From: Candidatus Saccharimonadales bacterium
GTDB lineage: Bacteria > Patescibacteriota > Saccharimonadia > Saccharimonadales > SZUA-47
NCBI GenBank assembly: GCA_041737385.1
Contig: JBGSRU010000009.1
Coordinates: forward strand, 7,015-71,014
Reading direction: 5' to 3'
DNA: 64,000 nucleotides
The notes under the pieces were generated by a model that did not search any database, was not told where the DNA came from, and saw only the letters and a program-made list of their open reading frames with translations. Positions 6,232-35,645 of the stretch are shown here, piece by piece (position 1 is the first letter of the stretch; each line of letters begins with the position of its first letter). The position numbers and the translations under genes are program-made.

Positions 6232-6239
6232 TAGCCGTA

Positions 6240-9660: not shown

Positions 9661-10131
9661 TTAGTTCAAACTAGCTTTTGTGTACTGGCTTTCCTTCTCA
9701 AGATATGAGTACAAGTTGTACTTCAAACAACCTGTAGCTGAACCTGAAACACAACTTCCGGCAGTTCCATCGCCGTAAGCGTTGTAAGCATATTCGTTAG
9801 TGTTTGTGAGCGTTGGAGCTGCTGGAGCGGTTAGTGAGAAAGAACTCACAATTGTTGCACCGTCAGCATCAGTTAGCGCACCTGCATCAATACCTGGGAA
9901 GGTAGCTGCTGCTAGCGCTGAAGATGGGTAAAAACCATTCTCATTGTAGAACTCTTCTAGCTTCTGGTAAACGCTGTTAATATCGTTTTTACGGACGGTA
10001 TCACGTCCTTTTGCTTGTGCGCCTTGGAAGTTAGTAAGTACTAACGTTGCCAAGATACCGATAATTGCAATCACGATCAAAAGCTCGATGATTGTAAAGC
10101 CGGCTTGTAGTTTCTGTTGTAGTTTGAGCAT
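9661..10131 (-). CDS. Type IV (major) pilin with prepilin N-terminal methylation motif
   Basis: Leader MLKLQQKLQAG|FTIIELLIVIAIIGILA. A strong RBS (AAGGAGGTG) lies upstream. Confidence 0.9.
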   Translation of the reverse strand: MLKLQQKLQAGFTIIELLIVIAIIGILATLVLTNFQGAQAKGRDTVRKNDINSVYQKLEEFYNENGFYPSSALAAATFPGIDAGALTDADGATIVSSFSLTAPAAPTLTNTNEYAYNAYGDGTAGSCVSGSATGCLKYNLYSYLEKESQYTKASLN

Positions 10132-10238
10132 TGGAGCCCACCTCCTTATTATTTTTTATAAAGCTTTCTCTCACAAAAGAAGTAAGATGCTTATGTTTAT
10201 AAAGTATCTATCAGGTGGCCTTTAGTGTCAAGTGTTTT

Positions 10239-11459
10239 TTAGATGTTATTTGCAAGCGAGCTTATCGGCCCAATAACGCTGACGGCAATGAGGCCAACCA
10301 TACCGCCCATAACAACGATAAGTATTGGCTCTAGTATTGAACTCAGCCCTTCAACTGCGGCATCAACCTCTTCCTCGTAGAAATCAGCTACCTTGATGAG
10401 AACGGTGTCTGATTGGCCTGTTTCTTCACCAATACTCATCATCTGCCCGACGATAGGGGGGAACACTTTACTAGCGCTTAACGACACACTTAGTTGTTCG
10501 CCGTTTGCAACGTTTTTAGCTGCAGCGATGAGCTCTTTTTCAACAACTGCGTTACCGATTGCCTTAGAAGTTATTTCGAGCGAATCCAGAACACTTACGC
10601 CAGCTGCCATTAAACTAGCAAAAATACGCGCAAAACGAGCGACGACAATCTTCACGACGATTATATTGATACCGGGTAGCTTTAATAATAGACGATCGCG
10701 TGTTTCACGGCCTTTCGCTGTTTTAAGGAATTTACGAAGATATATGGTCCCTCCCACCACGACAAAAAGATGAATAAACCAGTAATTAAGCAATATATCA
10801 CTTATACCGAGCATCACCTTGGTTATGGTAGGTAAGTCACCGCCGGTGAGGTCAGCGATTATTGTGCCGACTTTAGGTACGACAACGGTCATTAACATGA
10901 TGAAGACGCTCACCGTAATACCTATTAGTACCATAGGATAGGTCATTGCGCTCTTGAACTTTGCACGGATACCTGCATCTTTTTCTTGTTGAATCGCTAG
11001 TTTTTTTAGGATTTCATCCAAGATACCACCTGCTTCTCCTGCACGAATCATGTTTACATAGATCGGGTTGAAGACATCACTGTGCTTCTCAAGCGTGTCG
11101 GCAAACGCCATACCACCCTCAACGTCCTTGCTTATCTGAACCAAATGCGCCTTTAGTCCGACGCTTTCAGTTTGTGCCTGCATCGTTGCAAGACTTCTCA
11201 CCAAAGGAACGCCGGCATTAATCATCGTTGCGAGCTGTCTCGTGAATATAACTAGATCTTTCGGCTTGACTCTATTAGCACGCGCCGATAAAAACGGAAG
11301 ATTAATCTCACCTTTTTTCTTACCTATTTTTTTGATAACAAGTGGTTTCAAACGCATCCTCACCAGCGAGCTTCGTGCGGCAGCTTCATCAGCAGCGTCT
11401 AGTACACCTGAATGTTGTTTCTGGTCTTCTCCGGTTGCAGTGTAGTCAAATTTTGGCAT
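10239..11459 (-). CDS. pilC: Type IV pilus platform protein PilC (T2SS F family)
   Basis: Two T2SSF repeats and three TM segments, 406 aa. Confidence 0.85.
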   Translation of the reverse strand: MPKFDYTATGEDQKQHSGVLDAADEAAARSSLVRMRLKPLVIKKIGKKKGEINLPFLSARANRVKPKDLVIFTRQLATMINAGVPLVRSLATMQAQTESVGLKAHLVQISKDVEGGMAFADTLEKHSDVFNPIYVNMIRAGEAGGILDEILKKLAIQQEKDAGIRAKFKSAMTYPMVLIGITVSVFIMLMTVVVPKVGTIIADLTGGDLPTITKVMLGISDILLNYWFIHLFVVVGGTIYLRKFLKTAKGRETRDRLLLKLPGINIIVVKIVVARFARIFASLMAAGVSVLDSLEITSKAIGNAVVEKELIAAAKNVANGEQLSVSLSASKVFPPIVGQMMSIGEETGQSDTVLIKVADFYEEEVDAAVEGLSSILEPILIVVMGGMVGLIAVSVIGPISSLANNI

Positions 11460-11462
11460 AGT

Positions 11463-13226
11463 TTATTCTCTCGTTACTCGTAATATTTCTTCGATACTCG
11501 TCATACCAAGCATCGCCTTAATTAGCCCATCAAGCTGCATAGTTACCATACCACCTGTCACTGCTTGAGCTTGTATCTCTTCGCTTGTGGCGTTTGTGAC
11601 AATTAGTTTTTGGATATCTTCAGAATTTTTCAGCGCCTCGTAGATGCCCATTCGGCCTTTGTAGCCTGTACGGTCATTCGGAAGATCTTGTTTTGGACGC
11701 CAGAAGTTAAGCTTTGTTGATTTTGGTTGTCCAAAATGTTCTTGAGCTTCTGCAAGCAGCTTAAAGATGGCATCCCAATCAGCTTTTGTTTTGATACCGA
11801 AAACACGCTCTATTTCTTTGCGCTCTTCAACTGATGGTGAATACTGCTCACAATCTTCAGGGAAGAGTCGGCGCACCAATCTTTGCCCTATCACTACTCG
11901 CACGACACTGGCAATCAAAAATGGTTCAATATCCATATCAAGCAAACGCGGTAAGCAGGTTGCAGCGTTGTTCGTGTGCAAGGTCGAGAATACGAGGTGT
12001 CCAGTCAGCGCTGCTTGTACGCCCAGTCCTGCTGTTTCGCCGTCACGAATCTCTCCGACCATAATGATGTTTGGATCTTGTCTGAGTAGTGCTCGAAGCC
12101 CGGCAACGAATGTCATACCAGCGGTAGGATTTACTTGAGTTTGGTTGACGCCCTCCAGTTTGTACTCAACTGGATCTTCAATCGTACTAATATTGACGTC
12201 TGGCTTATTCAGGATATGAAGCACACTATGAAGGGTTGTTGACTTACCTGAACCTGTTGGTCCTGTCACCAGAATCATACCGTGTGGTTGATGAGAAGCG
12301 TCTTTGATGTCCGCGAGTGCTTTACCCCAAAAGCCAAGCGTTTCAAGCGATAATGGTTCACTTGACTCGTCTAATACACGCATAACCACCTTTTCACCTT
12401 CAGTGATTGGTAATGTTGAAACACGAAAAGCAAACACGCGTCCGTTCATAGTTATCTTAAATCGGCCGTCCTGAGGGGCACGGCGCTCATCAATTTTTAA
12501 GCTTGAAAGAATTTTGATACGCGACACGAGCGAGTTAAGCGTACGTTTAGGTAAACGGTTGGCTTCCTTCAGGACGCCATCTACACGGTAACGAATGAGC
12601 ACCTGCTTGTCTCTTGGTTCAATATGAATATCGCTTGCGCCTGATTTAACAGCATATTCAATTATCAGATTTACTGTCTGTGCGATTGGCGAGTCTTCTG
12701 CGACATCTTCTTCGCTTATATCTTCATCAGATTCATCTTCATCAGTGCCATCAGTGACGATTTTAGATATCTCGCTACCTATGTTGCCTCTATACTGGTC
12801 TAAAGCTGAGAGCACATTGAAATGTGTCGCGATGTATACTTTTATTTTTTGACCAAACAATTTATGGAGCACGTCAAGCGCTTGTAGATCGTCGGGATCC
12901 TCCATAGCTATGCAGCGCGGTTTGTCCTTTTCGTCTATAGAGCCATCAAACACAACCATGCTATAAAGCTTTGCGATGTGTTCAGGAAGTTGTTTCAGCG
13001 TTTCTTTATTGAGTTCTTTTATATTTATCTCAACATAGGGAACGCCTATTTCTTCGGCATATGCCTTGGTAAGCTCAGAATCACTGAGTACATTCTGCTT
13101 CACAATTAGCTCAAACAGCTCTGTGTTCTCGGTTTTAGCTTGCTCGACTAATTCTGCAATTTTTACTTCGTCAAAAGCATCTGATTTACGGAGTATGTCT
13201 ATAACTGTTTTTTCAGGAATTCTCAT
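11463..13226 (-). CDS. pilB: Type IV pilus assembly ATPase PilB (GspE family)
   Basis: Walker A GPTGSGKSTT, Asp box, Walker B and His box. An N-terminal T2SSE_N domain is present. Confidence 0.9.
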   Translation of the reverse strand: MRIPEKTVIDILRKSDAFDEVKIAELVEQAKTENTELFELIVKQNVLSDSELTKAYAEEIGVPYVEINIKELNKETLKQLPEHIAKLYSMVVFDGSIDEKDKPRCIAMEDPDDLQALDVLHKLFGQKIKVYIATHFNVLSALDQYRGNIGSEISKIVTDGTDEDESDEDISEEDVAEDSPIAQTVNLIIEYAVKSGASDIHIEPRDKQVLIRYRVDGVLKEANRLPKRTLNSLVSRIKILSSLKIDERRAPQDGRFKITMNGRVFAFRVSTLPITEGEKVVMRVLDESSEPLSLETLGFWGKALADIKDASHQPHGMILVTGPTGSGKSTTLHSVLHILNKPDVNISTIEDPVEYKLEGVNQTQVNPTAGMTFVAGLRALLRQDPNIIMVGEIRDGETAGLGVQAALTGHLVFSTLHTNNAATCLPRLLDMDIEPFLIASVVRVVIGQRLVRRLFPEDCEQYSPSVEERKEIERVFGIKTKADWDAIFKLLAEAQEHFGQPKSTKLNFWRPKQDLPNDRTGYKGRMGIYEALKNSEDIQKLIVTNATSEEIQAQAVTGGMVTMQLDGLIKAMLGMTSIEEILRVTRE

Positions 13227-21434: not shown

Positions 21435-22958
21435 ATGGTCCTTATTATGGGTCCTGTTATTGCAGCAGCGTTAATTTCGCTAGGTGTTGGCTTTGGAGTT
21501 AGTAGCTACACAACAAAAAAGAAGCTCGGAAGTGCAGAGGAAGAGGCAAAAAAAGAGTTAGACAAAGCAAAAAAAGAATCAGCTAAACTTGTTGATGAGG
21601 CAAAAGAAGAAGCAAATAAGCTTGCTGAAGAAGCACGAAAAGAAGAGCAGCAACGACGCAACGAGTCAAAAGATATCGAAAGGCGGTTGATTGATCGTGA
21701 GACAAATCTTGATAAAAAGCTCGATGAGCTTGATAAACGTACAGAAAAATTACGTGCTGGTGAAGACGAAGTCGAAGCGCTGAAAAATGAGATTCGTGAT
21801 ATTCGTACCAAGCAACAAGATAAGCTAGAAAAGATAGCGAAGCTTACCAAAACTGATGCAGCTGACAAGCTCATGAAAATGACTGAGCGAGATATCAAAA
21901 ATGATCTAGAGGGCCTAGTCCACAAGTTACAAAATGAGGCAAAAGAGAACGCTGAAGAACTCGCAGGAACGATTCTCGTCACTGCTATGGAGCGAATGGC
22001 AAGCGAAGTGACTGCAGAACGAACAGTGTCTGCTTTGAAGCTTTCTGACGAAGAAATGAAAGGCCGCATAATTGGGAAAGAGGGGAGAAACATCCAAGCA
22101 ATCCAAAAAGCAACCGGCGTAGATATTATGGTTGATGACACGCCAGGAATGGTTGTTATAAGCTCATTTGATCCAATTAGGCGTGCGGTGGGTGTTAAAG
22201 TCATGGAAATGCTCATGAAAGATGGGCGTATTCATCCAGGTCGAATTGAAGAAGTTGTTGAAAAAGCACAAAAAGAAGTGCAAAAAGACGTTATGCGCGC
22301 TGGCGAAGATGCGGCTCGTGAAGTTGGTATCGTTGGGATTCCGAAAGAAGTGCTGCAACTTGTTGGGGAGTTAAAATTCCGCACAAGCTATGGCCAGAAC
22401 GTTTTGAAACATTCAACTGAAATGGCGCATATAGCTGGAATATTGGCTGAGCAGCTTGGCGCGGATGTAAAAGTAGCGAAATATGCTGCACTTATTCACG
22501 ACATGGGCAAAGCCTTGACGCACAAGATGGAAGGTAAACACCACCATATTAGTGGTGAAATGGCCCGTAAGTACGGCGTCCCTGAAGCAGTTGCTCTTGC
22601 AGCCGAACAACATCATGATGACGTTGAAGCAACATCCGTTGAAGCCTTGATTGTGCGTGTCGTTGATGCTATTTCGGCAGCGCGCCCGGGTGCGCGTAAT
22701 ATTTCAGCAGAAAACTTCTCAGAAAGGATGAAAGATCTAGAAAATACTGCACTTGGTTTCGACGGTGTCGAAAAAGTATACGCAATCAGTGCCGGTCGTG
22801 AAATTCGTGTATTTGTGAAGCCAACTAAGCTTGATGATCTTGGTGCTATCAAGCTTGCTCGAGACGTCGCCAATAAAATCGAATCAACTATGCAATACCC
22901 TGGAACGATCAAGGTGAATGTAATCAGAGAAACTAGAGCTATAGAATTTGCCAAGTAA
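21435..22958 (+). CDS. rny: Ribonuclease Y
   Basis: N-terminal TM helix, Lys/Glu coiled coil, KH domain (GRIIGKEGRNI) and HD domain (LIHDMGKA). Confidence 0.95.
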   Translation: MVLIMGPVIAAALISLGVGFGVSSYTTKKKLGSAEEEAKKELDKAKKESAKLVDEAKEEANKLAEEARKEEQQRRNESKDIERRLIDRETNLDKKLDELDKRTEKLRAGEDEVEALKNEIRDIRTKQQDKLEKIAKLTKTDAADKLMKMTERDIKNDLEGLVHKLQNEAKENAEELAGTILVTAMERMASEVTAERTVSALKLSDEEMKGRIIGKEGRNIQAIQKATGVDIMVDDTPGMVVISSFDPIRRAVGVKVMEMLMKDGRIHPGRIEEVVEKAQKEVQKDVMRAGEDAAREVGIVGIPKEVLQLVGELKFRTSYGQNVLKHSTEMAHIAGILAEQLGADVKVAKYAALIHDMGKALTHKMEGKHHHISGEMARKYGVPEAVALAAEQHHDDVEATSVEALIVRVVDAISAARPGARNISAENFSERMKDLENTALGFDGVEKVYAISAGREIRVFVKPTKLDDLGAIKLARDVANKIESTMQYPGTIKVNVIRETRAIEFAK

Positions 22959-23006
22959 ATTAGAGCTTCCTAATTTAAAGTTCTAGCGTCAATAGTTTCT
23001 GCAACA

Positions 23007-23049
23007 CCAACTAAAAAGACCACCTATAAAAAGTGGTCATTTTAGTTGG
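23007..23049 (+). terminator. 17-bp hairpin downstream of rny; part of repeat R1
   Basis: CCAACTAAAAAGACCAC..GTGGTCATTTTAGTTGG with one mismatch. It sits 49 nt after the rny stop. Confidence 0.4.
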
Positions 23050-23182
23050 TCGAGACCCACGCATTTTACTTGAATTGTTCAAATACATCTGTGAGAATCC
23101 TGAAAGTTCTAATAGGTTACTAGCTCGACTAAAACGAGAGCCTGTAAAAAGTACTGTCAAGATTGAGAACCTTGTATATTAG
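23033..23182 (+). CDS. 49-codon ORF inside R1 (possible small ribbon-helix-helix-like protein or conserved gene 3' end)
   Basis: GTG start. Compared with the R2 copy, nearly all differences are synonymous, including TTA/CTA and TTG/CTG Leu changes and six consecutive synonymous codons before different stop codons. Confidence 0.4.
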   Translation: MVILVGRDPRILLELFKYICENPESSNRLLARLKREPVKSTVKIENLVY

Positions 23183-23224
23183 CGATAAAGTGATATAATT
23201 TATACCAAAGATTGGAGTATTAAT

Positions 23225-23998
23225 GTGTCTACTTTGAGAATGTATGAAGCCGTTCGTGAAGAAGGTGCTGGTTTATGGGTTGGTGCAAACCAATATGGTC
23301 AGGAATTACCTAATGAAACAGAAGCTAATTTTATAGTACAAAAAACAGCCAAAGGTCTATGGCGAGTTGCTGTAAAGGGCTATAACGGAGGCAAGTTCTT
23401 TCCTACCTTAGTCAATACAAACGGTGAAGTTGCCGCACAAATAGGTGACCAGCATTACCCTGCAATGGACTCTCACCAAAGACTTATATCAGTTGATGAC
23501 GAAACTATGCAACTGTACGAAGAATCTTTAAGAGATACAGATGACAAAGATAGAGGATTGCTACTTAATGTTCTTGAAGGCGAAAAGCAAGGGCTATGGA
23601 GCTTGAGTGGTCCTGCCGAATATAACATTTATGAGGAGTTCGCTCAACTACTATATGGTGACGCAAGCCAAGTAGGACTTAGCTGGGGTGAATGGAGAGA
23701 ATGGGATGATAACAATCCTGACCAGTCTGGATACCACGTAAAAAAACCAGTTGCTGCCCAAGTAGTAGTAGATGGTCCTGAATTTCACGTTAGACCATAC
23801 GACCATAATGTTAGTGGTGTGACTGCGTCAGCGATTAAAGACAGGATTAAATACTTTCCTACAGCTACGAATCTAGTTAGAGACTTATCTGATGCTGATA
23901 CTATTGCTTTACGTTATATGAATGATGACTTTGCTTACGGCTCGCCAGCAGTAGAAACACAGAAAACTAATGTACTTGAAACAATTTACGGGAAGTAA
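23225..23998 (+). CDS. Hypothetical protein (257 aa, acidic, Trp/Tyr-rich)
   Basis: Long ORF with GTG start preceded by TTGGAG. I recognised no family. Confidence 0.5.
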   Translation: MSTLRMYEAVREEGAGLWVGANQYGQELPNETEANFIVQKTAKGLWRVAVKGYNGGKFFPTLVNTNGEVAAQIGDQHYPAMDSHQRLISVDDETMQLYEESLRDTDDKDRGLLLNVLEGEKQGLWSLSGPAEYNIYEEFAQLLYGDASQVGLSWGEWREWDDNNPDQSGYHVKKPVAAQVVVDGPEFHVRPYDHNVSGVTASAIKDRIKYFPTATNLVRDLSDADTIALRYMNDDFAYGSPAVETQKTNVLETIYGK

Positions 23999-24004
23999 CT
24001 TCAG

Positions 24005-24058
24005 TACGTCACACAATGACATTGTACGACATGCTCTAACAGGGATAGAGTGATTTAT
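24005..24058 (+). repeat. Direct repeat R3a (pairs with 26289-26343)
   Basis: TACGTCACACAATGACATTGTACGACATGCTCTAACAGGGATAGAGTGATTTAT versus a roughly 85 percent identical copy upstream of arsR. Confidence 0.7.
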
Positions 24059-24119
24059 GTCCTAGAGGACGTTCCTCTATAGGTGTAAAATCGTGTAACT
24101 TTGTATTTGAGAGGACTTG

Positions 24120-24204
24120 GTCACTTTCAGCGACCCCGAGATTTCATTGAATCAAATAAGTTTGATGAAGAAAGTCTCCTTCCGAAAGTCCACTGGACTT
24201 TCTC
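24120..24204 (-). repeat. Three-hairpin module, copy A (inserted in a tRNA-Pro-derived T arm)
   Basis: The minus strand reads GAGAAAGTCCAGTGGACTTTCGGAAGGAGAC...CGGGGTCGCTGAAAGTGAC. It is flanked by GAGAGGACTTG (24109-24119, identical to the tRNA-Pro T stem/loop) and ACCTCCAACC. Confidence 0.7.
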
Positions 24205-24255
24205 ACCTCCAACCTCTTCTCGGTCGGAGCTTCAAAGCCTCTCACGCCCAATGGT

Positions 24256-24431
24256 ACCAACTAAAAAGACCACTCGTGAAAGTGGTCATTTTAGTTGGTC
24301 GAGACCCACGCATTCTACTTGAACTGTTCAAATACATCTGTGAGAACCCTGAAAGTTCCGACAGGTTACTTGCTCGACTTAGACGTGAACCAAAACCTAG
24401 AATGGTCCAAATAGAAAATCTGGTGTACTAA
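24256..24431 (+). repeat. Direct repeat R2 (pairs with R1)
   Basis: Starts at the ACCA end of the degenerate tRNA-Pro 3' copy and includes the hairpin CCAACTAAAAAGACCAC..GTGGTCATTTTAGTTGG. Confidence 0.85.
24282..24431 (+). CDS. 49-codon ORF inside R2 (paralog of 23033-23182)
   Basis: It is in frame with the 104-aa track ORF 24117-24431, but only the last 49 codons are conserved with R1. Confidence 0.4.
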   Translation: MVILVGRDPRILLELFKYICENPESSDRLLARLRREPKPRMVQIENLVY

Positions 24432-24521
24432 TCTAGCGTGTTGACTTAAAACTGTCTTGTGTAAAGACTTCCTGATCCCTTTTTAGCGCATTAACAACAA
24501 TTTGGGCACATGTTTTGACTC

Positions 24522-25925
24522 CTATACGCAACAACTTAGTTTTGATATATCATTCTTGAACGAAAGAGCGGCGTACTTTATACCCTCAGATATGGTTGGG
24601 AACATTGGGATTGTATCTGTGACGTCATCAATTGTGTTTTTATTCTTAACAATCATCATAACCTCAGCAATCAGCTCACTTGCATGGGGTGCGACAATGG
24701 TCATGCCTTCAATAACTTCTGTCTTAGGATTAGCTGAAATGTTGAACAAGCCCTCGGTTTGCCTAGTTATGCCAGCTTTAGGTACTACTTCAAGCTGAAC
24801 TGTACGACACAAACACAGATTGTATCTACTCATCTGTTCTTCTTCGGTTAAACCAACACCTGCTAGTTGTGGGCTTGTGAATACAGCGAATGGAACAGTA
24901 TCATAATCTATTGAATTATTCTCGCTTTTAAGTGCGTTCAAGGTTGCAAGCGTTCCCTCACGACCAGCGGTCGTTTCTTGTCTTAGTGGAAGGTCAACGA
25001 CGTCCCCAACTGCAAATATATTCTTATTGTTGGTACTGTACGTGTTAGAAACCTTGATTGCTCCGTTTTTTGATAACTCAACGTTTGCCTTTTCGATGTT
25101 CATTTTGTCGGTATTAGGCGTTCTGCCAGAAGCAAGCAGTATCTCATCGACTACAAGTGTCTTTGATTCTTCGCCTACAGTGTAAGTTAGGTGTTTCTTC
25201 CCGTTCTTTGCCTCGACAGATTCAAGATTAGAACTGGTGATTATTTCGATACCTTCTTCTGATAGAATACCCTGTAGCCGAAATGCAGAACCTGTATCTA
25301 CTCTAGGCAGTATTCGTTCTGCTCGTTGCAAGATTGTAACTTTGCTTCCGAAACGAGAGAACATTTGTCCCCATTCCAATCCTTGTGCACCAGCACCAAC
25401 AACAGCTAATGACTTCGGTAGTTCTTTAAGCTCAACTGCATCAATGTGAGTTATATATCCAGCTTCTTCTAGCCCCTTTACGTCTGGTATCCGTGTTCGT
25501 GAGCCTGTTGCTATGATTATTTTTGGTGCTGTAAATGTTTCATTTTCAACAGCAACAGTTTTTTCGTTTTCAAAAGTGGCGTGCCCCTCAAGATAAGTTA
25601 CATGTTCAAGCTCGCCTAAGACGTCTTTATACTTCTTAGTTCGCATCTTCTCAACCATGGCTTGCTCATCAGCAATAACTTTGGCAAAATCAGCCTCTCT
25701 GACGTTAAACTCTAAACCAGGCACACCGTGATGTGTAGCATTGTGAACAAGTTCGGCTGCGTGAATAAGTGTTTTTGACGGGACACAGCCCACATTAACG
25801 CACGTACCGCCTAAAGGTAAGCCAGCATTGACCATCAAAGTCTTTGCTTTAAGTGTGTTGGCTTTAATGGCTGCAGAAAACGCTCCTGCACCGCCACCAA
25901 TAATAATAAGGTCGTATTGTTTCAT
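24522..25925 (-). CDS. merA: Mercuric reductase MerA (core enzyme, no N-terminal HMA domain)
   Basis: FAD motif IIIGGGAGAF, redox disulfide GGTCVNVGCVPSK and a C-terminal vicinal Cys pair (..KLSCCV). Confidence 0.8.
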   Translation of the reverse strand: MKQYDLIIIGGGAGAFSAAIKANTLKAKTLMVNAGLPLGGTCVNVGCVPSKTLIHAAELVHNATHHGVPGLEFNVREADFAKVIADEQAMVEKMRTKKYKDVLGELEHVTYLEGHATFENEKTVAVENETFTAPKIIIATGSRTRIPDVKGLEEAGYITHIDAVELKELPKSLAVVGAGAQGLEWGQMFSRFGSKVTILQRAERILPRVDTGSAFRLQGILSEEGIEIITSSNLESVEAKNGKKHLTYTVGEESKTLVVDEILLASGRTPNTDKMNIEKANVELSKNGAIKVSNTYSTNNKNIFAVGDVVDLPLRQETTAGREGTLATLNALKSENNSIDYDTVPFAVFTSPQLAGVGLTEEEQMSRYNLCLCRTVQLEVVPKAGITRQTEGLFNISANPKTEVIEGMTIVAPHASELIAEVMMIVKNKNTIDDVTDTIPMFPTISEGIKYAALSFKNDISKLSCCV

Positions 25926-25926
25926 T

Positions 25927-26247
25927 TTATGCTCCTAACATCTTAGCTACGTTTTGAAACTCTTTTTTATTGAGAGAGTAGAAGTTGTGCTTACCGTCCT
26001 TACGAACAGTCACAAGTTCCACATCTTTAAGACGAGCTAAACTATGTGAAGCATTGGAAATGCTTGTACCTACTAGTTCGGCTATGACTGTTACGTTAAG
26101 CTCGGGGTGGTGTCTGAGAAGGTAGCATATTTTTAATTTGGTCTGGTCACCAATGACACCGCATTGTCTGGCACATCTGTCGATTGCAACATTATCTACA
26201 AGTTCTTTTTTGATGTTATTGAGTTGAACGTTTGAACGCATATTCAA
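25927..26247 (-). CDS. ArsR/SmtB family metal-responsive transcriptional regulator
   Basis: Winged HTH (KLKICYLL...VTVIAELVGTSISNASHSLARLKDVELV). It sits 1 nt upstream of merA. Confidence 0.8.
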   Translation of the reverse strand: MNMRSNVQLNNIKKELVDNVAIDRCARQCGVIGDQTKLKICYLLRHHPELNVTVIAELVGTSISNASHSLARLKDVELVTVRKDGKHNFYSLNKKEFQNVAKMLGA

Positions 26248-26288
26248 ATGATACCATTACTTAAGCCCTGATTCAACAAGGCTTGTGC

Positions 26289-26343
26289 TACGTCGCACAA
26301 TCAACATTCTACGACATGCTCTAACAGGGGTAGAGCCATTTAT
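26289..26343 (+). repeat. Direct repeat R3b
   Basis: Copy of R3a. It overlaps the -10 and 5' UTR of the candidate arsR-merA promoter. Confidence 0.7.
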
Positions 26344-26366
26344 TTAGCGACTCGGGGCTTTGTCAA
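26338..26366 (-). promoter_or_regulatory. Candidate promoter of arsR-merA
   Basis: On the minus strand, TTGACA, a 17-nt spacer, then ATAAAT, about 90 nt upstream of the arsR start. Confidence 0.45.
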
Positions 26367-26444
26367 GTGCTAGTGTTGTTTTCGCCCACCCCTGTTAAAA
26401 AACCTACTACACCATAATAGGAATTTGCATACGTTTCATTAGGA

Positions 26445-27392
26445 TCAGACGTATATTCCTTGCTTAACTTTTATTGGGTCTAAAGGTTCGTTAGTAAACG
26501 GGTTAGTATAGCTGGTTAAGGGTGGTTCATCGGGTAAAGGAAACTTGCCAACCAGCCGAAATGGCTGTTTTGGCGGTGTTTCGTCACCTAGTTCTTCCCA
26601 TTCGCTTATCTTGCTAATTTCAATAGGCTCAAATACTATATCTTCCGATGACGTGAACGACTTGTCGCTTAGGTCATAAAAGCCACGAGCCATTTGCCCA
26701 ACAGCAGAACCTTTTCGCTTATTAGCCTTAACTACATACCTGTAAGTAAGGTCTACTATTATCGTGTCTCCACGTAGGTCAATTATTGGAACTTGTTCAA
26801 ATCTGTACTGGTATGAGCCTTCTTTGATAATGTCTATAGTATCGTCACTCCAATGGTCTCTAAATAATTCGTATATATTTCTTGGTGGCTCTGAGCCGTC
26901 AGATATTTTCATGTCCCATACTAGTGGCGAGAATCTAAAGTCTTGTCCTGTTTGTTCAAGACCATAAGAGATTGAATCAAGGTAAAATCCTTCCGCAATC
27001 ACTGGTGCTTTAATCATAAAGTTACTTGTATCTGCATGACCTTTATCTATTAGTACCACTGTCTTAATCTTGTAATGCTTGGCAGTTCGTAGGGCAGACT
27101 TAGTAAAGCCTGCATTTGAAATCATTATTCCGCTTTTTGCATTCTCATCCTTTAGCTTATTTGCAAATTGCTCAACCTTTGGCAGGTCTACTGGCTTTGA
27201 ATGATCCTTGCACTCAATATCAATGAAATCTTTGTCGCCAACCTTTATATCTATTTGTCTTGGAGCTTGGCTAATCACGCCAGTCACTTTTTGATTTGGT
27301 TTTACAATCTGATTACTAAAAACCTTGGAACTAGTCTGCATTGCACTTTCTTCAAAGCTTTTCCATTTAGGTTTCTTGGTGTTATCAGGCAT
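26445..27392 (-). CDS. Mrr-like restriction endonuclease domain protein (PD-(D/E)xK) with uncharacterised C-terminal domain
   Basis: N-terminal WKSFE...IDIKV...IDIECKDH...GIMISNAGFTKSA matches the Mrr_cat pattern. The C-terminal ~170 aa is unassigned. Confidence 0.6.
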   Translation of the reverse strand: MPDNTKKPKWKSFEESAMQTSSKVFSNQIVKPNQKVTGVISQAPRQIDIKVGDKDFIDIECKDHSKPVDLPKVEQFANKLKDENAKSGIMISNAGFTKSALRTAKHYKIKTVVLIDKGHADTSNFMIKAPVIAEGFYLDSISYGLEQTGQDFRFSPLVWDMKISDGSEPPRNIYELFRDHWSDDTIDIIKEGSYQYRFEQVPIIDLRGDTIIVDLTYRYVVKANKRKGSAVGQMARGFYDLSDKSFTSSEDIVFEPIEISKISEWEELGDETPPKQPFRLVGKFPLPDEPPLTSYTNPFTNEPLDPIKVKQGIYV

Positions 27393-27413
27393 TTACATAT
27401 CCTCAAGGATTAT

Positions 27414-27806
27414 CTATAAACTCGCAAGCACAATCGCTTCTTTAATCTCTTTTTCAATGCTATCGCCATATTTCTCAAGTTCTTCTAAAGTAACCCAAGA
27501 AAACTCTTGGTGCTCATCACTTAATACCACGTCATTGGTATTGGTGTCGCAAAGAAAGAACAATGCAACTATATGCTTAAGTTCACCTTCTGGTTTTGCG
27601 AACCACTCGTCAACGTGAATAACCTTACCTACAACTAAATCTGTAATACCAGTTTCCTCACTAGCTTCTCGGCGTAGACCGTCTTCCAGCTTTTCACCTT
27701 TTTCAAGTCTTCCGCCGACTGCTTGCCATCTTTCACCTTCACGAACAATAAGAAACTTTCCATCTTGATTTTTAATTACTGCTTTTACGGCTACTTGTGT
27801 ATCCAT
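27414..27806 (-). CDS. NUDIX hydrolase
   Basis: Nudix box GGRLEKGEKLEDGLRREASEETGI. Confidence 0.85.
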   Translation of the reverse strand: MDTQVAVKAVIKNQDGKFLIVREGERWQAVGGRLEKGEKLEDGLRREASEETGITDLVVGKVIHVDEWFAKPEGELKHIVALFFLCDTNTNDVVLSDEHQEFSWVTLEELEKYGDSIEKEIKEAIVLASL

Positions 27807-28612
27807 TATTGTTTCTGCTCCATTGTTAAATAAGTGTTTCGAATAGCTTCAATTAGATCGTTATCTAGCTCATTACTCCTAGCCATTTCTGATAGTAGAG
27901 CTAGGTCTTTTTTGGGTACTTGGCTTGGCTTGAATGCTATATTGGCTGTCATCATCTCCGCTAAGTCTTCTTTCCATACTTGTCCAAAATTATCTAATGA
28001 TTGCTCGCTCATGAAATCGTAAACAGCAGGTATATTTGCACCATACTTACTTAGTAGCCTGTGGGCTTCTACTCCGACTGCTAGGTTTGCATATCTAGCA
28101 AGGTTAAATGTGAGCTTTGCGAGTGTAGCAGAAGGAATATCTCCCATATATCGTGTACTACCCATAGCCTCAAACACTTCTTTATTATCTTCAAATGCTT
28201 TTTTTGAACCCTCAACTAAAAACTCAATTGTTCCACTAGTTGCATGGTTCTTGCCACCAATCATAGGTGAACTTAAAAATTGTTTGCCTTTAGACTCAAA
28301 TATACTCGCAAACTCTTTAGCTATTTCAGGTGTTAATGTACTTGTCTCAATAATCGTCACGATGTTGTTGTTTTCGGCGAGTAATTCTTCAATAACTGTT
28401 CGAGAAGCATCTGGATTAGGTAAACAGAGTATGACAACTTCACTAACATTAGCAATGTCGGTAACACTATTCGCCTTTTGAATACCAAATTGTTGAAGCT
28501 TAGTTGTTTGTTCATTATCAGTATCGAAGCCTATTAAGCTAAAGTCCTTAGAAAGTATGTTTTTCGCCATACCACTTCCCATGTTTCCTAGACCTACAAA
28601 ACCAATTTTCAT
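27806..28612 (-). CDS. NAD(P)-dependent oxidoreductase (3-hydroxyisobutyrate/6-phosphogluconate dehydrogenase-like)
   Basis: MKIGFVGLGNMGSGMAKN Rossmann start. ATG 28612 is preferred over the 30-codon upstream extension in the track. Confidence 0.75.
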   Translation of the reverse strand: MKIGFVGLGNMGSGMAKNILSKDFSLIGFDTDNEQTTKLQQFGIQKANSVTDIANVSEVVILCLPNPDASRTVIEELLAENNNIVTIIETSTLTPEIAKEFASIFESKGKQFLSSPMIGGKNHATSGTIEFLVEGSKKAFEDNKEVFEAMGSTRYMGDIPSATLAKLTFNLARYANLAVGVEAHRLLSKYGANIPAVYDFMSEQSLDNFGQVWKEDLAEMMTANIAFKPSQVPKKDLALLSEMARSNELDNDLIEAIRNTYLTMEQKQ

Positions 28613-28876
28613 AACTACATAATAACAGGGCAAAATTGGAATAGCCACACAATACCTCAACATATACCTTAAAGCTTGTCCAGTGCTCTTAGGATGCTTC
28701 ACAGAGCAACTTTTAACTAAGGGTTCTTGTTCATCTTTTGCATTGTACGAATACCGAGCGACTGCTCACGATTTTTTTTCTTAGATTTTCTACCCTCAAC
28801 GCCATTTATTCACGCAACAATACTATTATTATCTGACAGTGGTTTTCTTAAAAACTCAGTAAACGTATGAGAGTTC

Positions 28877-29107
28877 TTAGGCAATTGTCCAGAAATTCAT
28901 CGTAACTTTGGTTTGGTTTTCTTTGGCGGTAGTTATTCTTTCGGCGAATACCTGATTGTTCTTCAGATAGTAATAAAAACTACTCCTCGAAATCCCTGCA
29001 AAGCGACAACTGTCGGTAATGTTGGTGTTATGGGATATTGCGTCAGCCAAGATAATGACTGTACGCATAGTTATAATTTGTGGTCTTCCTACTGATTTCT
29101 TAATCAT
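28877..29107 (-). CDS. Small helix-turn-helix protein (candidate element regulator or directionality factor)
   Basis: 76 aa. ITDSCRFAGISRSSFYYYLK is a resolvase/transposase-type HTH. Confidence 0.45.
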   Translation of the reverse strand: MIKKSVGRPQIITMRTVIILADAISHNTNITDSCRFAGISRSSFYYYLKNNQVFAERITTAKENQTKVTMNFWTIA

Positions 29108-29192
29108 TAAACTCCTTTTGTTTTGATATGTATCTATTTTAATTATCTCATTTACACTATTTTGGGTAGGTAACCTATAATATTAAATAATT

Positions 29193-30041
29193 ATGGGTAC
29201 TCCAAAACCGAAGAAAGCTAACGACTATGCAGTAGCAAAAGCACTGAACGAGGTGGTCTATAGTATATTGGTCTTTGTATATGCGGGATGGGGTACTGAT
29301 CTATATAAAGAACATGAAATTGCGGAGATTAACCGCACATACATTCTGATAACGCACGAATTAGAAAAAATATACGCACGTAACCCCGAATTACTTGCAA
29401 TAAAGCCCGATCCGATTTGGAGACTTTTTGAAGTACTGAAAAACACCACGGAGACTATAGCCGACCACTTTAGTGATTCCGACGACCATGGTGCAGAGCA
29501 TACAGTAAGGGTAGAAAAGTTATGTATCCTTGCTGGTGTAGATGAGCCAAGTTATACACCAGAGCAACAGAAATTGGTGGATAATTCTAAAGTGGCAATT
29601 AGTAATTATGCTGCGTTGGTCAAGAAGGAAGGCGAGAAATTGTTAGCAGTAAAAAAAGAATACGGCTGGGAGATGATGAATTACTATCTGACTTACAAAC
29701 CAGACGGCACAATCTTGATAAACGACGTATTGAAACTTAAGAAAGTTCATGCAGGATCCATCACGGAAAAGTTGCTAGAACAATCCATAAAGAATCCTAA
29801 TACTAAATTCAAGCCAGAACTCGGAAAGACAGCGAGAAATATCAGCACAATAGTTAGTAGTGCTGGCTTTACGCCTGTTCTAAGGGATTTGTTTTTCCCA
29901 ACTGTTAGTGGTGACACCGTCGTATTCCGTCCATTTGTATCTAAATTACAGGCAGATACAGAACGCATAGATAGAGATGAACTAGATTTGCAGCTCAGAG
30001 AAAACGGTGCTATCTGCAGAGTAGTATTTGAACCAAAGTGA
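29193..30041 (+). CDS. Hypothetical protein (282 aa) within the island
   Basis: Long ORF in which I recognised no family. Confidence 0.45.
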   Translation: MGTPKPKKANDYAVAKALNEVVYSILVFVYAGWGTDLYKEHEIAEINRTYILITHELEKIYARNPELLAIKPDPIWRLFEVLKNTTETIADHFSDSDDHGAEHTVRVEKLCILAGVDEPSYTPEQQKLVDNSKVAISNYAALVKKEGEKLLAVKKEYGWEMMNYYLTYKPDGTILINDVLKLKKVHAGSITEKLLEQSIKNPNTKFKPELGKTARNISTIVSSAGFTPVLRDLFFPTVSGDTVVFRPFVSKLQADTERIDRDELDLQLRENGAICRVVFEPK

Positions 30042-30182
30042 ACCGAAAAGAACCATATGAAACGACATCAAACTGATACAGCGACTTAAAGATATATAAG
30101 TTCTTTAATGGTGATAGGACGAATAATCCGAGTTCACCTAACTATAATCGTCTTGTTAGGAGGGCTCGAATACGGAGCCGAT

Positions 30183-30368
30183 ATGTCATTAAGTAATGAG
30201 CAAGAAAATAAGAATGTTACCAGTCAAGAAACTAACAGCATAAGCGATACAAGAATAAACCTAGCTGCCGTTGTCATTGGGCTAGAAAAAACTAGAGCCA
30301 CAATACAAGATTTAACAGATAACGAACTGTATGTATTCGATTTGCACGGGAACAAAGTATTACTATAA
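30183..30368 (+). CDS. Small hypothetical protein
   Basis: An internal ATG with a GGAG-like RBS is preferred over the 30108 start. Support is weak. Confidence 0.25.
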   Translation: MSLSNEQENKNVTSQETNSISDTRINLAAVVIGLEKTRATIQDLTDNELYVFDLHGNKVLL

Positions 30369-30420
30369 ATATTTAGCAAGAGTCTACACGAACTATTGAA
30401 TCAGTCTATAATACGACTAA

Positions 30421-32085
30421 ATGAATGATGATATAGCAACAACCAAACAATTATTACAGATGATGCAGACCTTGTATCCTAATCAGGATCCAAGAGATAT
30501 TGACCCAACAACTTTGCGATATGTCATATATGCTAGAAAATCTACTAGAAGTGAAGAACGACAAGAACGAAGTATACCTGACCAGATTGCAGACTGTTAT
30601 CTCAGAGAGGTAGACCTATACGGGTTAACCGTTATTGGTAAGCCAATCCGTGAGAAGCAAAGTGCAAAAGAACCAGATATACGACCTAAGTTTCGACAGA
30701 TGATTGATGACATAAAAGCTGGTAAGTATGACGGTATCATCGCATGGCACCCTGATAGGCTTGCAAGGAATATGAAAGAGGCAGGAGAGATAATTGACCT
30801 ACTGGACAAGGGCATTCTTAAAGACATACGCTTCGCTACAAGTAGCTTTGAAAACAGCCCAACAGGTAAGATGTTACTCGGCATATCTTTTGTTCTATCT
30901 AAACAGTATTCAGAGCACTTGAGTGAAAGCGTAACAAGAGGTAATAGACGTAAGACAGAAGGTGGTGTGTTCTTCGCTGATATGAAGCACGGTTACTACA
31001 TAGGGGACGGTAAGCTGTTTCCTGACGGCAATAACTTCATACTTATTAGACAAGCATTTGAGAAACGTCTTGAGGGTTGGGGTCAGAAAGAAATAGCTAA
31101 CTGGCTAAATACTCAAGGCTATATGATTAGAAAAAAGAACAAAAAGCCCCAAACATTCAAGTGGGACAAGGACAATATTAGTAAGCTATTTCGTGATACG
31201 ACTAATGCTGGAGTTCTTAAATACGGTCAGACATTCACTGACCTGACAGACTTTTATGATTTTGAAGCTGTTGTATCTGTTGAAGAGTTTCTTAAAATCA
31301 ACAAGGTCAAAGACTTGTCTGATCCTAAGCTAATGTCATCAATCTTGGTCAAGTCTAGAGAAGCCACGAAAGCAAATCTGTTAAGGGGTATGGTGTATTG
31401 TGGTTTTTGCGGTAAATCTTTTAGCTCTGGAATAACTGTCAAAAAAGACAAAGAAACTAGAAAGATACTCACTAGTCGTTACTTTTACCGATGTGAAAAC
31501 GAAGAATGTGAATTTAAGAATAAAAGTGTCAGAGCAAAAACTGTAATAGAGGTTGCAATCAAGTTCCTGTCTGAGCACCTGTACACGACTAAAGATAACT
31601 ATGATAGATATGTCTCTGACGCTAAAGAGTACGCTTCTACACAAGCCAAAGCTCTTGATGGCGACATTGCCAGCTTAGCTCGACAAATAGGCAATAAGAA
31701 AGCCGAGTACAGTCGCACAAAAGAGATTATCAGAGACAAGCCAGCTCTTGCCAAGCACTACAACTTAGATGAGATTGAAGCTGAGCTAAAAGCCATTACT
31801 ACTGACCACGACAAGCTTGCTAAGAGCCGTAAAGACCTCAAGCAATCGGTTTTGGAATATTCTGAATATCTCGAACTTTTTGAAAACATAGGTGTTATTT
31901 TAACAAAAACGCATGATATGGGGTTATTAGACGAGAACATCAAAAAGTTCTTCTTGAACTTTTCTGTGAAGCAATGGGGACTAGGTAAAAAACAGAGGTC
32001 AGAAGTTACCTTCAACTTAAATGAACCCTTCGCAGGGTTCATAAAATCGAACAATTTCGTTCATGGTCGGGGTGAGAGGACTTGA
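30421..32085 (+). CDS. Large serine recombinase (integrase)
   Basis: Resolvase catalytic domain (YVIYARKSTRSEERQERSIPDQ, DGIIAWHPDRLARN), recombinase domain, zinc ribbon (CGFCGK...CENEEC) and a coiled coil. The last 22 nt overlap the 3' end of tRNA-Pro. Confidence 0.9.
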   Translation: MNDDIATTKQLLQMMQTLYPNQDPRDIDPTTLRYVIYARKSTRSEERQERSIPDQIADCYLREVDLYGLTVIGKPIREKQSAKEPDIRPKFRQMIDDIKAGKYDGIIAWHPDRLARNMKEAGEIIDLLDKGILKDIRFATSSFENSPTGKMLLGISFVLSKQYSEHLSESVTRGNRRKTEGGVFFADMKHGYYIGDGKLFPDGNNFILIRQAFEKRLEGWGQKEIANWLNTQGYMIRKKNKKPQTFKWDKDNISKLFRDTTNAGVLKYGQTFTDLTDFYDFEAVVSVEEFLKINKVKDLSDPKLMSSILVKSREATKANLLRGMVYCGFCGKSFSSGITVKKDKETRKILTSRYFYRCENEECEFKNKSVRAKTVIEVAIKFLSEHLYTTKDNYDRYVSDAKEYASTQAKALDGDIASLARQIGNKKAEYSRTKEIIRDKPALAKHYNLDEIEAELKAITTDHDKLAKSRKDLKQSVLEYSEYLELFENIGVILTKTHDMGLLDENIKKFFLNFSVKQWGLGKKQRSEVTFNLNEPFAGFIKSNNFVHGRGERT

Positions 32086-32140
32086 ACCTCCGACCTCGCG
32101 GTCCCAAACCGCGCACTCTAGCCAACTGAGCTACACCCCG
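32064..32140 (-). tRNA. tRNA-Pro (anticodon UGG), CCA encoded
   Basis: CGGGGTG-TA-GCTC-AGTTGGCTA-GAGT-G-CGCGG-TTTGGGA-CCGCG-AGGTC-GGAGG-TTCAAGT-CCTCT-CACCCCG-A-CCA. A TATAAT box lies at 32154-32159. Confidence 0.92.
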
Positions 32141-32188
32141 ATGATGTATATGTATTATAACTTATAAAGGTTCAAATCTGAGGACTTG

Positions 32189-32275
32189 GTCACGTACCGC
32201 GACCCCGTCGCCACTTCTTTGAAAACAAGTTTACAAGAGTGAACTCCCTTGCGAAGTGCGCAATCGGCACTTCTC
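32189..32275 (-). repeat. Three-hairpin module, copy B
   Basis: The minus strand reads GAGAAGTGCCGATTGCGCACTTCGCAAGGGAG...CGGGGTCGCGGTACGTGAC, flanked by a tRNA 5' fragment and CAAGTCCTCA. Confidence 0.7.
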
Positions 32276-32302
32276 ACTCTAGCCAACTGAGCTACACTCT
32301 GG
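32276..32302 (-). pseudogene. tRNA 5' fragment (acceptor plus D arm only)
   Basis: CCAGAGTGTAGCTCAGTTGGCTAGAGT. Its 21-nt D-arm region is identical to tRNA-Pro, the acceptor strand differs, and there is no anticodon arm. Confidence 0.7.
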
Positions 32303-35170: not shown

Positions 35171-35359
35171 TAGTACCTCAGGAGGGAATCGATCTACCTT
35201 CGGCAGCCCCGAAACTACATCTATGAAAGCAATCTTTCAAGTGAAGGTTTCCTTACAAACTGCCACAGGCAGTTTTCACCCCGACCTTTTTGGTCGGGCG
35301 TTCGACTCGCTTCGCGAGTACCAAACTAAAAACCAGCCTAGAAAGGCTGGACTTTAGTT
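35171..35359. mobile_element. Miniature cargo-less insertion at the 3' end of tRNA-Arg(UCU)
   Basis: It begins with a 19/22 copy of the tRNA-Arg 3' end (35171-35192). It then carries module C1, an inverted degenerate copy of the tRNA 3' part ending in ACCA (35292-35323), and a hairpin. Confidence 0.5.
35193..35277 (-). repeat. Three-hairpin module, copy C1
   Basis: The minus strand reads GAAAACTGCCTGTGGCAGTTTGTAAGGAAAC...CGGGGCTGCCGAAGGTAGA, flanked by GGTCGGGGT and TCGATTCCCTCC. Confidence 0.7.
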
Positions 35360-35362
35360 TGG
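35321..35362 (-). terminator. Hairpin/terminator abutting the CCA end of tRNA-Arg(UCU)
   Basis: An 18-nt-arm stem, CCAAACTAAAAACCAGCC..GGCTGGACTTTAGTTTGG, with two mismatches. Confidence 0.55.
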
Positions 35363-35436
35363 TACCCCGGGAGGGAATCGAACCCCCGACCTGTGGGATA
35401 GAAGCCCATTGCTCTAATCCGCTGAGCTACCGGGGC
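35360..35436 (-). tRNA. tRNA-Arg (anticodon UCU), CCA encoded
   Basis: GCCCCGG-TA-GCTC-AGCGGATTA-GAGC-A-ATGGG-CTTCTAT-CCCAC-AGGTC-GGGGG-TTCGATT-CCCTC-CCGGGGT-A-CCA. A TATAAT box lies at 35452-35457. Confidence 0.9.
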
Positions 35437-35480
35437 GAGTACCAGATAAGTATTATAACAGGGGTTCGATCCAGAATCGA

Positions 35481-35566
35481 GCCACCTTTGGCGGCCCTGA
35501 AACTTCATGATTGAAAAACAAGTTTTCATCAGAAGATTTCCTTGCAAAATGCTACCAGCATTTCTC
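35481..35566 (-). repeat. Three-hairpin module, copy C2
   Basis: The minus strand reads GAGAAATGCTGGTAGCATTTTGCAAGGAAATC...CAGGGCCGCCAAAGGTGGC. Confidence 0.7.
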
Positions 35567-35620
35567 ACCCCGACCTGTGGGATAGAAGCCCATTGCTCTA
35601 ATCCGCTGAGCTACCGGGGC
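35567..35620 (-). pseudogene. Truncated second copy of tRNA-Arg(UCU), positions 1-54 only
   Basis: It is 100 percent identical to 35383-35436, and the identity continues through the 10-nt upstream flank. It ends at the T-loop where module C2 begins, with no matching 3' acceptor strand downstream. Confidence 0.75.
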
Positions 35621-35645
35621 GAGTACCAAATCGCTTAAAATCAAT

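Follow-up and report, generated by a model that had tools for sequence, protein, structure and literature searches.

The window analysed here is a stretch of 64,000 nucleotides from a Candidatus Saccharimonadales genome (assembly GCA_041737385.1, contig JBGSRU010000009.1, positions 7,015 to 71,014), and it carries an integrated element, called element 2 below, at positions 24297..32064 on the plus strand (7,768 bp, counting one copy of the core). The element lies between a tRNA-Pro gene and a hairpin of the terminator type. The tRNA-Pro(UGG) gene (32064..32140, minus strand), identified by ARAGORN and Rfam, is the integration target and forms the B' arm of the right attachment site, attR. It abuts a gene for a large serine recombinase (LSR) in an integrated, truncated form of 554 amino acids (30421..32085, plus strand) with the Pfam domains Resolvase, Recombinase, and Zn_ribbon_recom; no other LSR sequence occurs in the window outside 30421-32082. 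The hairpin at the opposite end (24256..24299; an inverted repeat with the arms ACCAACTAAAAAGACCACT and AGTGGTCATTTTAGTTGGT) is outside the mobile element and is read as the former terminator of the tRNA-Pro gene, now the host-side (B) arm of the left attachment site, attL, of element 2. Next to it stands R2 (24297..24431, plus strand; GRDPRILLELFKYICENPESSDRLLARLRREPKPRMVQIENLVY followed by a stop), the detached last 44 codons and stop of the LSR gene, in frame with that gene across GGT CG. An orphan copy, R1 (23048..23182, plus strand; 44 codons and a stop, core TGGTCG at 23047-23052), has no LSR body of its own and is preceded by a copy of the hairpin (23006..23050), the host-side arm of an orphan attL, directly downstream of rny (21435-22958). 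On the sequence evidence given below, the segment shared by R1 and R2, referred to as R, is very probably the 3' end of the LSR gene, split off by the integration of the element at tRNA-Pro.

Positions 23006-23182 and 24256-24431 align as a direct repeat with a length difference of 1 nt in the hairpin loop, which confirms the repeat of about 176 bp described in an earlier, sequence-only reading of the window. As that reading had also stated, both copies open with ACCA and a hairpin; the arms measure 18-19 bp and are identical between the copies, while the loops differ. The 153 nt on the 3' side of the loop align without gaps and contain 29 differences; in the plus frame, 19 of these hit third, 6 first, and 4 second codon positions, and the final eight are regularly spaced at 3 nt. 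Translation reproduces the peptides quoted in the sequence-only reading, which end in IENLVY with the stop codon TAG in one copy and TAA in the other, and the similarity stops there; the in-frame stop at 23027 and the GTG at 23033 in R1 are likewise as reported. For the 44 conserved codons, the Nei-Gojobori counts are Sd 18 and Nd 10 (pS 0.58, pN 0.10). The conserved part of R begins exactly at TG/GTCG (the slash marks the boundary), the reverse complement of the tRNA-Pro 3' end CGACCA, and the hairpin arms are identical between the copies despite a divergence of about 58% at neutral sites in R.

Judged from R1 and R2 only, the coding strand is ambiguous, as a minus-strand frame sharing the wobble position is also open in both copies (14 synonymous versus 8 non-synonymous codons). 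The plus strand is settled chiefly by intact proteins, described below, that match its frame; the minus frame was rejected on a stop, read by eye, in a related locus (L002) and on the continuation of the recombinase by the plus frame. Two further candidates were discarded. The +1 frame from a conserved ATG/TTG, (A/T)TGGTCGAG (MVETHAF...), has stops at varying positions and non-synonymous changes, and a decayed antisense tRNA (TGGT followed by CGAGACC) shows neither T-arm nor acceptor pairing. Its match to the tRNA T-loop, ACTTGAAC, is better explained as a predicted recombinase-binding motif. Rfam returned nothing relevant, either for the window at the gathering threshold or for 22900-24600 at E values up to 10, and the R peptide had no match in Pfam or PHROG.

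The LSR coding sequence proper extends to 32069, and the last codons of the ORF, GGT GAG AGG ACT TGA, are the antisense of tRNA-Pro. The 3' end reads AAT TTC GTT CAT GGT CGG GGT GAG AGG ACT TGA, translated as NNFVHGRGERT and a stop, and R starts with GGT CGA GAC CCA in the same frame, the shared part being T-GGTCG. Since the two ends share GGT CG in frame, joining them is predicted to give a recombinase of 592 amino acids that ends in R. A first peptide search with R alone had found a single protein, an 81-aa "hypothetical protein" encoded at L002; intact recombinases surfaced only when the joined 592-aa protein was the query. Two were returned. P0004 (592 aa, 84% identity, 100% coverage) contains NFVHGRDKHMLLELFKYTIENYESS ahead of a terminal GLVF, with the C-terminus NFVHGRDKHMLLELFKYTIENYESSEKLYKNLKFANMTRNTQVQGLVF, and P0034 (593 aa) contains CGREKRLLLELFHYIIDNPEP ahead of the same GLVF, with the C-terminus CGREKRLLLELFHYIIDNPEPAQRLLEKLRSTEAQKPKIIDGLVF. 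P0034 is carried by two contigs of 5,667 nt from two samples, each with a terminal overlap of 30 nt, and once trimmed to 5,637 bp they match at 100% identity as circular permutations of each other. We take these contigs to be a circular form that carries the whole gene, a tandem array being less likely.

The split arrangement recurs in four further integrated loci, in each of which a truncated LSR gene abuts a minus-strand tRNA-Pro gene and an R-like segment of 44 codons lies 1.6-5.3 kb upstream on the LSR strand: L010 (R 2026-2157, LSR 5084-6796, tRNA-Pro 6784-6860), L011 (R 4534-4665, LSR 10001-11710, tRNA-Pro 11653-11729), L012 (R 8279-8410, LSR 10001-11677, tRNA-Pro 11656-11732), and L013 (R 342-473, LSR 4067-5731, tRNA-Pro 5710-5785). 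Body and tail thus stand at opposite ends of one element in five loci. A genome scan with R added two loci from Candidatus Saccharibacteria metagenome-assembled genomes (MAGs), L005 and L006, in which similarity starts abruptly at (A)TGGTCGAGACCC. Nine detached copies were inspected at the nucleotide level, and the left flanks of all nine are unrelated up to T/GGTCG, with the break at the same nucleotide in every case. Among the 120 top-scoring LSR homologues, the C-terminus is GRG, GRGERT, or a longer translation of the tRNA antisense in 98 and an R-like tail in three. These tRNA-derived ends, together with the split loci and the intact forms, lead us to place the attachment site of the free element, attP, inside the LSR gene, which would be split by integration. 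The hosts of this element family are Candidatus Saccharibacteria and Saccharimonadales MAGs. In many annotated recombinases of this family (P0063, P0065, P0072-P0074, P0085, P0100, and others) the pseudo-C-terminus, such as GRGERTRTFDLTVPNRARYQLRHTP, is the antisense translation of a whole tRNA gene; integrated copies thus give rise to a systematic error of annotation.

The sequence-only reading had proposed instead that R is an independent small gene encoding a 49-aa ribbon-helix-helix protein from the GTG in the hairpin. An open frame with this GTG in R1, longer open frames in R2 and L002, the strong purifying selection, and the fact that gene callers have called such open reading frames (ORFs) all speak for a gene of its own. 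The conservation, however, begins at Gly-Arg, where there is no start codon, and the in-frame peptides upstream are unrelated among the copies. In L005 and L006, whose upstream flanks are unrelated, no in-frame ATG, GTG, or TTG occurs between the upstream stop, which in L005 is a TGA three codons ahead of the conserved tail, and the tail itself; two detached copies therefore have no in-frame start codon whatever. Since the conserved peptide starts at Gly-Arg, the residues VVILV and the GTG belong to the flanking terminator hairpin, and they are missing in six of the nine copies. The ribbon-helix-helix assignment falls with them because the proposed strand lies outside the conserved peptide; no Pfam or PHROG profile matches, and a low-confidence model of the tail has two helices and no strand. 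The 44 residues are instead the C-terminus of intact recombinases of 592-593 aa, that is, of a longer known gene from which site-specific recombination, rather than simple truncation, appears to have detached them. An independent gene is thus highly improbable.

A second alternative holds that R is the displaced 3' end of a targeted host gene, of which diverged copies have piled up at the site, in line with the common situation in which an element brings a replacement 3' end for the gene it targets. This would explain the direct repeats, the synonymous differences, the missing start codons, and the position at element ends, and it is nevertheless extremely improbable: the only full-length proteins with this tail are recombinases, a peptide query against 5.8 billion protein clusters returned no host gene, and the target is tRNA-Pro, which ends at the core, with R always at the end opposite the tRNA.

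Orphan copies without a recombinase do exist (R1, L005, and L006), and they could be taken to mean that all R copies are pseudogene fragments left by ordinary deletions, with the intact genes as the sole functional state. Random deletions would not place body and tail at opposite ends in five loci, and they do not account for the identical break nucleotide in the nine detached copies, which coincides with the tRNA 3' end, the very point where 98 of 120 recombinase ORFs leave the recombinase sequence. A search with a profile built from eleven tails returned 18 "hypothetical proteins" only 39-77 aa long. Of the 16 whose sequences were read, the majority are unrelated to one another ahead of GR and the others start within the tail, again at odds with haphazard breakage. 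We regard deletion fragments as very unlikely. Under self-splitting of the LSR gene, the orphans have probably lost their recombinase secondarily, which is compatible with the proposed split.

The eleven tails (nine detached copies and two intact genes) have 44 codons each, zero indels, and the stop at an identical position. As dS is saturated in about a third of the pairs, omega covers the remaining pairs, and it is about 0.07-0.2 in most of them, with values of up to about 0.5-0.8 where L002 or L008 is one of the pair. Compared with the 44 codons that precede the core, the tail changes more quickly, yet it is clearly constrained. The aligned codons accordingly indicate purifying selection on the tail, as the sequence-only reading had deduced from R1 and R2 for this strand and frame, and R1 and R2 acquired their synonymous-type differences when the tails belonged to working recombinase genes. 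Given this selection on the tail, the full-length protein presumably matters in the free state. In L002, which has the same hairpin and a related tail, the motif ESS..LL.RLK is kept by means of different codons.

The attachment sites are consistent with a crossover at the boundary of R. The core TGGTCG, the reverse complement of CGACCA, stands at 24296..24301 (plus strand) in the attL of element 2 with the crossover placed within it; it occurs again at 32064-32069 and in every attL, attR, and attP examined. The attR form is AAYTTCGTTnnT directly followed by GGTCGGGGTGAGAGG, the attL form has an unrelated flank followed by T/GGTCG(A/G), and the attP form reads TTCGTTCAT GGTCGAGAC. The centre was taken as TG, where T pairs with A76 of the tRNA and G is the first base of GGTCG; this putative central dinucleotide follows from the symmetry of attP, within the 6-bp identity block TGGTCG. 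Joining the ends of the window element gives a predicted attP junction of AATTTCGTTCA-TG-GTCGAGACCCACGC, and the predicted empty attB junction consists of the hairpin sequence CATTTTAGT-TG-GTCGGGGTGAGAGG. The first ~28 bp of R2 would also serve as the P' half-site of attP. The motif RCT[TC]GAAC lies 19 bp from the centre in 10 of 11 P' arms (R copies and both intact genes), at 24317-24324 in R2 as ACTTGAAC, and R1 has the variant ACTTGAAT at the same position. In the B' arms formed by tRNA genes the motif is 14 bp from the centre in five of five, where it is the T-loop; in the window it is ACTTGAAC at 32080-32087, and the tRNA-Pro gene stays intact up to its CCA end. A motif of the zinc-ribbon domain (DBD2) placed 5 bp inward in attB relative to attP is a described hallmark of large serine integrase sites (PMC11722253). 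In the P arm, within the LSR gene, YGAAC was found at the mirrored offset by hand count in two loci (the window and L011); a scripted search for a left-arm motif returned nothing. Codons 1-9 of R (GRDPRILLE) may double as the P' half-site, and this may explain the near-invariance of the DNA and the invariant LLELF. An 8-bp inverted repeat is present in the recombinase coding sequence at 32021-32042 (ATGAACCC, 6 nt, GGGTTCAT; encoding NEP..GF) and at the same position in L007, L008, L010, L011, and L013; it overlaps the predicted recognition motif of the P arm and is altered on both sides in other elements (ACGAACCC / GGGTTCGT).

The recombinase itself has the features of its class. Its catalytic domain matches PF00239 (E 4.5e-20) and, at the profile level, the catalytic domain of TP901-1 integrase (3bvp); in the motif Y..R/K-S-T...Q, S41 is invariant in 42 homologues. 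PF07508 (E 1.5e-12) and PF13408 (E 4.3e-6) follow, with four invariant cysteines, and the model of P0004 contains long helices at 391-439 and 449-474, corresponding to the coiled-coil insert of the zinc-ribbon domain. In the integrated gene, a single ORF still encodes 548 of the 592 residues and, with them, every recognised domain. The tail in the AlphaFold model of P0004 consists of helices at 550-564 and 569-582, with pLDDT of about 55 falling to about 30.

From these data the following mechanism is proposed. In this family of Saccharibacteria elements, attP would lie in the reading frame of the recombinase, 44 codons ahead of its stop. The elements would integrate at the 3' end of tRNA-Pro by a crossover in TGGTCG (CGACCA on the tRNA strand) that keeps the tRNA intact. 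Integration would place the recombinase body beside the tRNA, with its ORF running a few codons into the tRNA antisense (GRGERT and a stop), and would leave the true tail R at the opposite element end, beside the former terminator hairpin of the tRNA. Excision or head-to-tail joining of the element ends would then restore the full 592-aa gene. Of this scheme, the split architecture, the unbroken frame across the core, the intact and circular forms elsewhere, the recurrence in independent loci, and the purifying selection on the tail are seen directly in the sequences. The free form may require the tail, for instance to integrate or to keep the protein stable. As elements of the family occur in many contexts and as circles, the tail-less form of the integrated element probably still supports excision, possibly together with the product of ORF 30108-30368.

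Several points weigh against this scheme. A circular contig from a de Bruijn assembly can also come from a tandem array, and the linear contig L007, which encodes P0004, could hold a tandem junction instead of a free circle. The circular and intact forms belong to related elements in other samples, and excision of the window element is a prediction from sequence. The structural model of the tail is of low confidence, with pLDDT of about 55 or lower, and the host-side left arm shows no recognisable motif for the zinc-ribbon domain. Finally, R1 and its counterpart in L006 have no recombinase nearby and yet evolve like coding sequence. Between R1/ORF257 (23048-23998) and L006 (133-1083), pS is 0.39 for R1 and 0.31 for ORF257, and pN is 0.04 and 0.046; the two tails differ by 12 synonymous and 4 non-synonymous changes. 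Given this excess and a pS on a par with that of the neighbouring gene, a dead remnant would not be expected.

One possibility is that the attL of R1 could pair with the attR of element 2, letting the composite excise and the LSR regain a tail. More speculatively, the split could act as a switch: the circular form would make a full-length integrase that needs the tail to integrate or to be stable, the integrated form would be tail-less and either excision-competent or silent, the direction of recombination would be set in part by the state of the gene, and orphan tails would be spare 3' ends with which a neighbouring recombinase excises a composite and regains a complete gene. We consider this extension tentative and somewhat doubtful; if true, it would be the first case for a serine recombinase and for bacteria.

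R1 and ORF257 (23225..23998, plus strand; no Pfam match and a marginal PHROG match at E 0.039), the cargo gene that travels with R1, form an older left-end unit without a recombinase of its own, outside element 2. This follows from L006, a Saccharimonadales MAG, where a block of R and ORF257 is 89% identical and has an unrelated left flank and where an uninterrupted tRNA-Pro arrangement is found, together with the lack of any other LSR in the window. In the block, a 42-nt spacer with a TATAAT-like promoter is identical at 40 of 42 positions between the window and L006. The order at the uninterrupted tRNA-Pro(GGG) of L006 is a structured unit, a decayed inverted tRNA half, a hairpin, and the tRNA gene, and the hairpin, equivalent to that at 24256-24299, immediately follows the CCA end. 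The right end of the R1 unit was not found in the window. Between R1 and R2, at 24098-24259, a structured unit of ~110 nt is followed by a decayed 3' half of tRNA-Pro that ends in ACCA. A decayed recombinase 3' end at 24070-24099 (AAC TTT GTA TTT, NFVF) was considered and rejected, local alignments to four recombinase 3' ends being no better than those of shuffled sequences; the sole match of this region is the 12-mer TGAGAGGACTTG from the T-arm of tRNA-Pro.

The claims of the sequence-only reading about the surrounding elements fared unevenly. That the peptide marks the ends of integrative elements at the tRNA-Pro site is borne out, and so is the presence of two element ends in series, of which the left one is older, incomplete, and contains ORF 23225-23998. 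The decayed ACCA-ending unit that was thought to precede R1 is not supported, its in-register identity of 13/46 being no better than that of shuffles. The hairpin next to R is only partly general: L002 has it, but the sequences to the left of R in L005, L006, and L010-L013 do not. In the relatives L010 and L012, rny, ymdB, and tRNA-Pro succeed one another on one strand, and the element lies past the tRNA. In the window, by contrast, the hairpin and R1 come straight after rny, and tRNA-Pro is 9 kb off on the other strand; this implies an inversion or another rearrangement, one end of which lies at the att site.

The cargo of element 2 comprises, all on the minus strand, genes for a pyridine-nucleotide oxidoreductase (Pyr_redox, 24522-25925), an ArsR-type HTH regulator (25927-26247), an Mrr-like nuclease (26445-27392), a NUDIX hydrolase (27414-27806), and a 6PGDH-like dehydrogenase (27806-28702), and three small or unassigned ORFs followed by the LSR gene close the order. 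L002, whose left end carries a related R, shares the right-hand cargo (Mrr and NUDIX) at 94% identity. Just upstream of the LSR gene, a small ORF of 86 aa (30108..30368, plus strand) has no significant Pfam match and may encode an accessory or directionality factor; alignment shows that five other elements keep its C-terminal motif, NLA.TA.LLEKL...LYVFDK.GNKV.L (L011 9659-9946; L012 9739-9960; L013 3812-4012; L008 2578-2847; L007 84-212). A 40-nt sequence downstream of ORF257 (24019-24058, starting with ACATTGTACGACATGCTCTAACAGGGATAGAG) has a 90% identical copy in element 2 at 26304-26343, between the ArsR-type and Mrr-like genes, and also occurs in L002 at 5188-5311.

A family of repeat units of ~90-110 nt adjoins tRNA genes or tRNA fragments. 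In the window the units are at 24098-24215(+), 32178-32285(+), 841-960(-), 35190-35290(+), 35483-35576(+), and 46510-46613(+), and elsewhere at 2976-3090 and 4002-4100 in L002 and at 1186-1290 and 1496-1602 in L006. Read in the tRNA sense, each copy resembles a tRNA 3' half (Pro, Arg, or Lys) whose T-loop holds the unit, in the order GG(A/G)GGT, the unit, and TCAAGTCC or TCGATTCC. RNAalifold analysis of ten units predicted three hairpins with 30 pairs; compensatory changes occur in 23 of the pairs, and one is an invariant G-U pair. Because of the compensatory pairs and the invariant G-U pair, the tRNA-sense strand is probably the functional one. The unit at 24098-24215 had no Rfam match at a permissive threshold, and no unit-related match was obtained across the window at the gathering threshold. 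The tRNA-Arg, tRNA-Lys, and tRNA-Pro sites each have a decayed inverted copy of their own tRNA 3' half beyond the terminator hairpin (window 35292-35391, 46614-46715, and 24218-24299; L006 1285-1385). Each tRNA and its inverted copy form a pseudo-palindrome of ~100 bp with 48-nt arms that are 79-81% complementary, and these may be footprints of inversions at the sites. In addition, positions 35568-35631 duplicate 35384-35447 at 98%, comprising the 5' 53 nt of tRNA-Arg(UCU) and 11 nt upstream, and the duplicate is joined at its T-stem to a repeat unit, 184 nt from the real gene.

If the LSR gene is split as proposed, the majority of the proteins deposited for this recombinase family are chimeras, with the true last 44 residues missing and a tRNA antisense end in their place. 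Mining integrated copies for genome engineering would then clone an incomplete enzyme and misplace attP, while the correct protein and attP could be rebuilt by joining the two element ends. The split would also explain the tiny "hypothetical proteins" of 39-77 aa in Saccharibacteria annotations and would provide an exact rule for delimiting the elements. It further raises the question of whether the structure of an integrase's own gene can encode directionality.

Among known systems, the recombinase shares with the integrases of phiC31, Bxb1, A118/LI, TP901-1, and SPbeta the Resolvase, Recombinase, and zinc-ribbon domains, the long coiled-coil insert, and the invariant catalytic serine motif, and its sites share with theirs a DBD2 motif 5 bp nearer the centre in attB than in attP; these features place it in the LSR family. 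In the searched collections, its identity to LSRs of phages and plasmids is at most about 27%, and none of them covers the tail. In the classic serine integrases, to our knowledge, attP lies outside the int reading frame. In 2020, targeting of a tRNA gene by serine integrases was still described as "not reported previously" (PMC7192596), and the present elements would add a whole family of such enzymes that target a tRNA 3' end.

In the integration-dependent immunity systems of mycobacteriophages (BPs, Brujita, MabB, and MabN), the attP core lies in the 3' part of the repressor gene (PMC9934374). As in our elements, integration at a tRNA removes the 3' end of a gene, the remnant stays at the other prophage end, and the free and integrated forms encode different proteins (PMC9934374). 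There, the repressor is split and the integrase is a tyrosine recombinase, whereas here the recombinase itself is split and no repressor spans the junction, so the attP core is not in a repressor gene. The tail removed in the mycobacteriophages is a degradation tag.

The closest parallel is with the SSV-type, or "suicidal", integrases, which have attP in their own integrase frame and whose genes are partitioned by tRNA integration and restored by excision (PMC8371274, PMC7253208). According to a 2021 review, these are tyrosine recombinases found exclusively in archaea, and the split is described as breaking up the gene, so that the partitioned integrase might lack activity and excision would depend on an intact copy (PMC8371274). 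In the literature searched, which was incomplete so that an earlier description is possible, serine or Saccharibacteria equivalents were not found and self-splitting was described for archaeal tyrosine recombinases only. If the element's insertion splits the gene of its own serine integrase, as the comparisons above suggest, self-splitting integrases would occur in bacteria too and would include serine recombinases. As in SSV1, SSV2, pTN3, and pT26-2, attP appears to be inside the integrase frame, the pieces of the partitioned gene stand at opposite element ends, and excision would restore it. In contrast to these archaeal systems, the recombinase here is a bacterial large serine recombinase that loses only the last 44 of its 592 codons, and all of its recognised domains remain in one piece.

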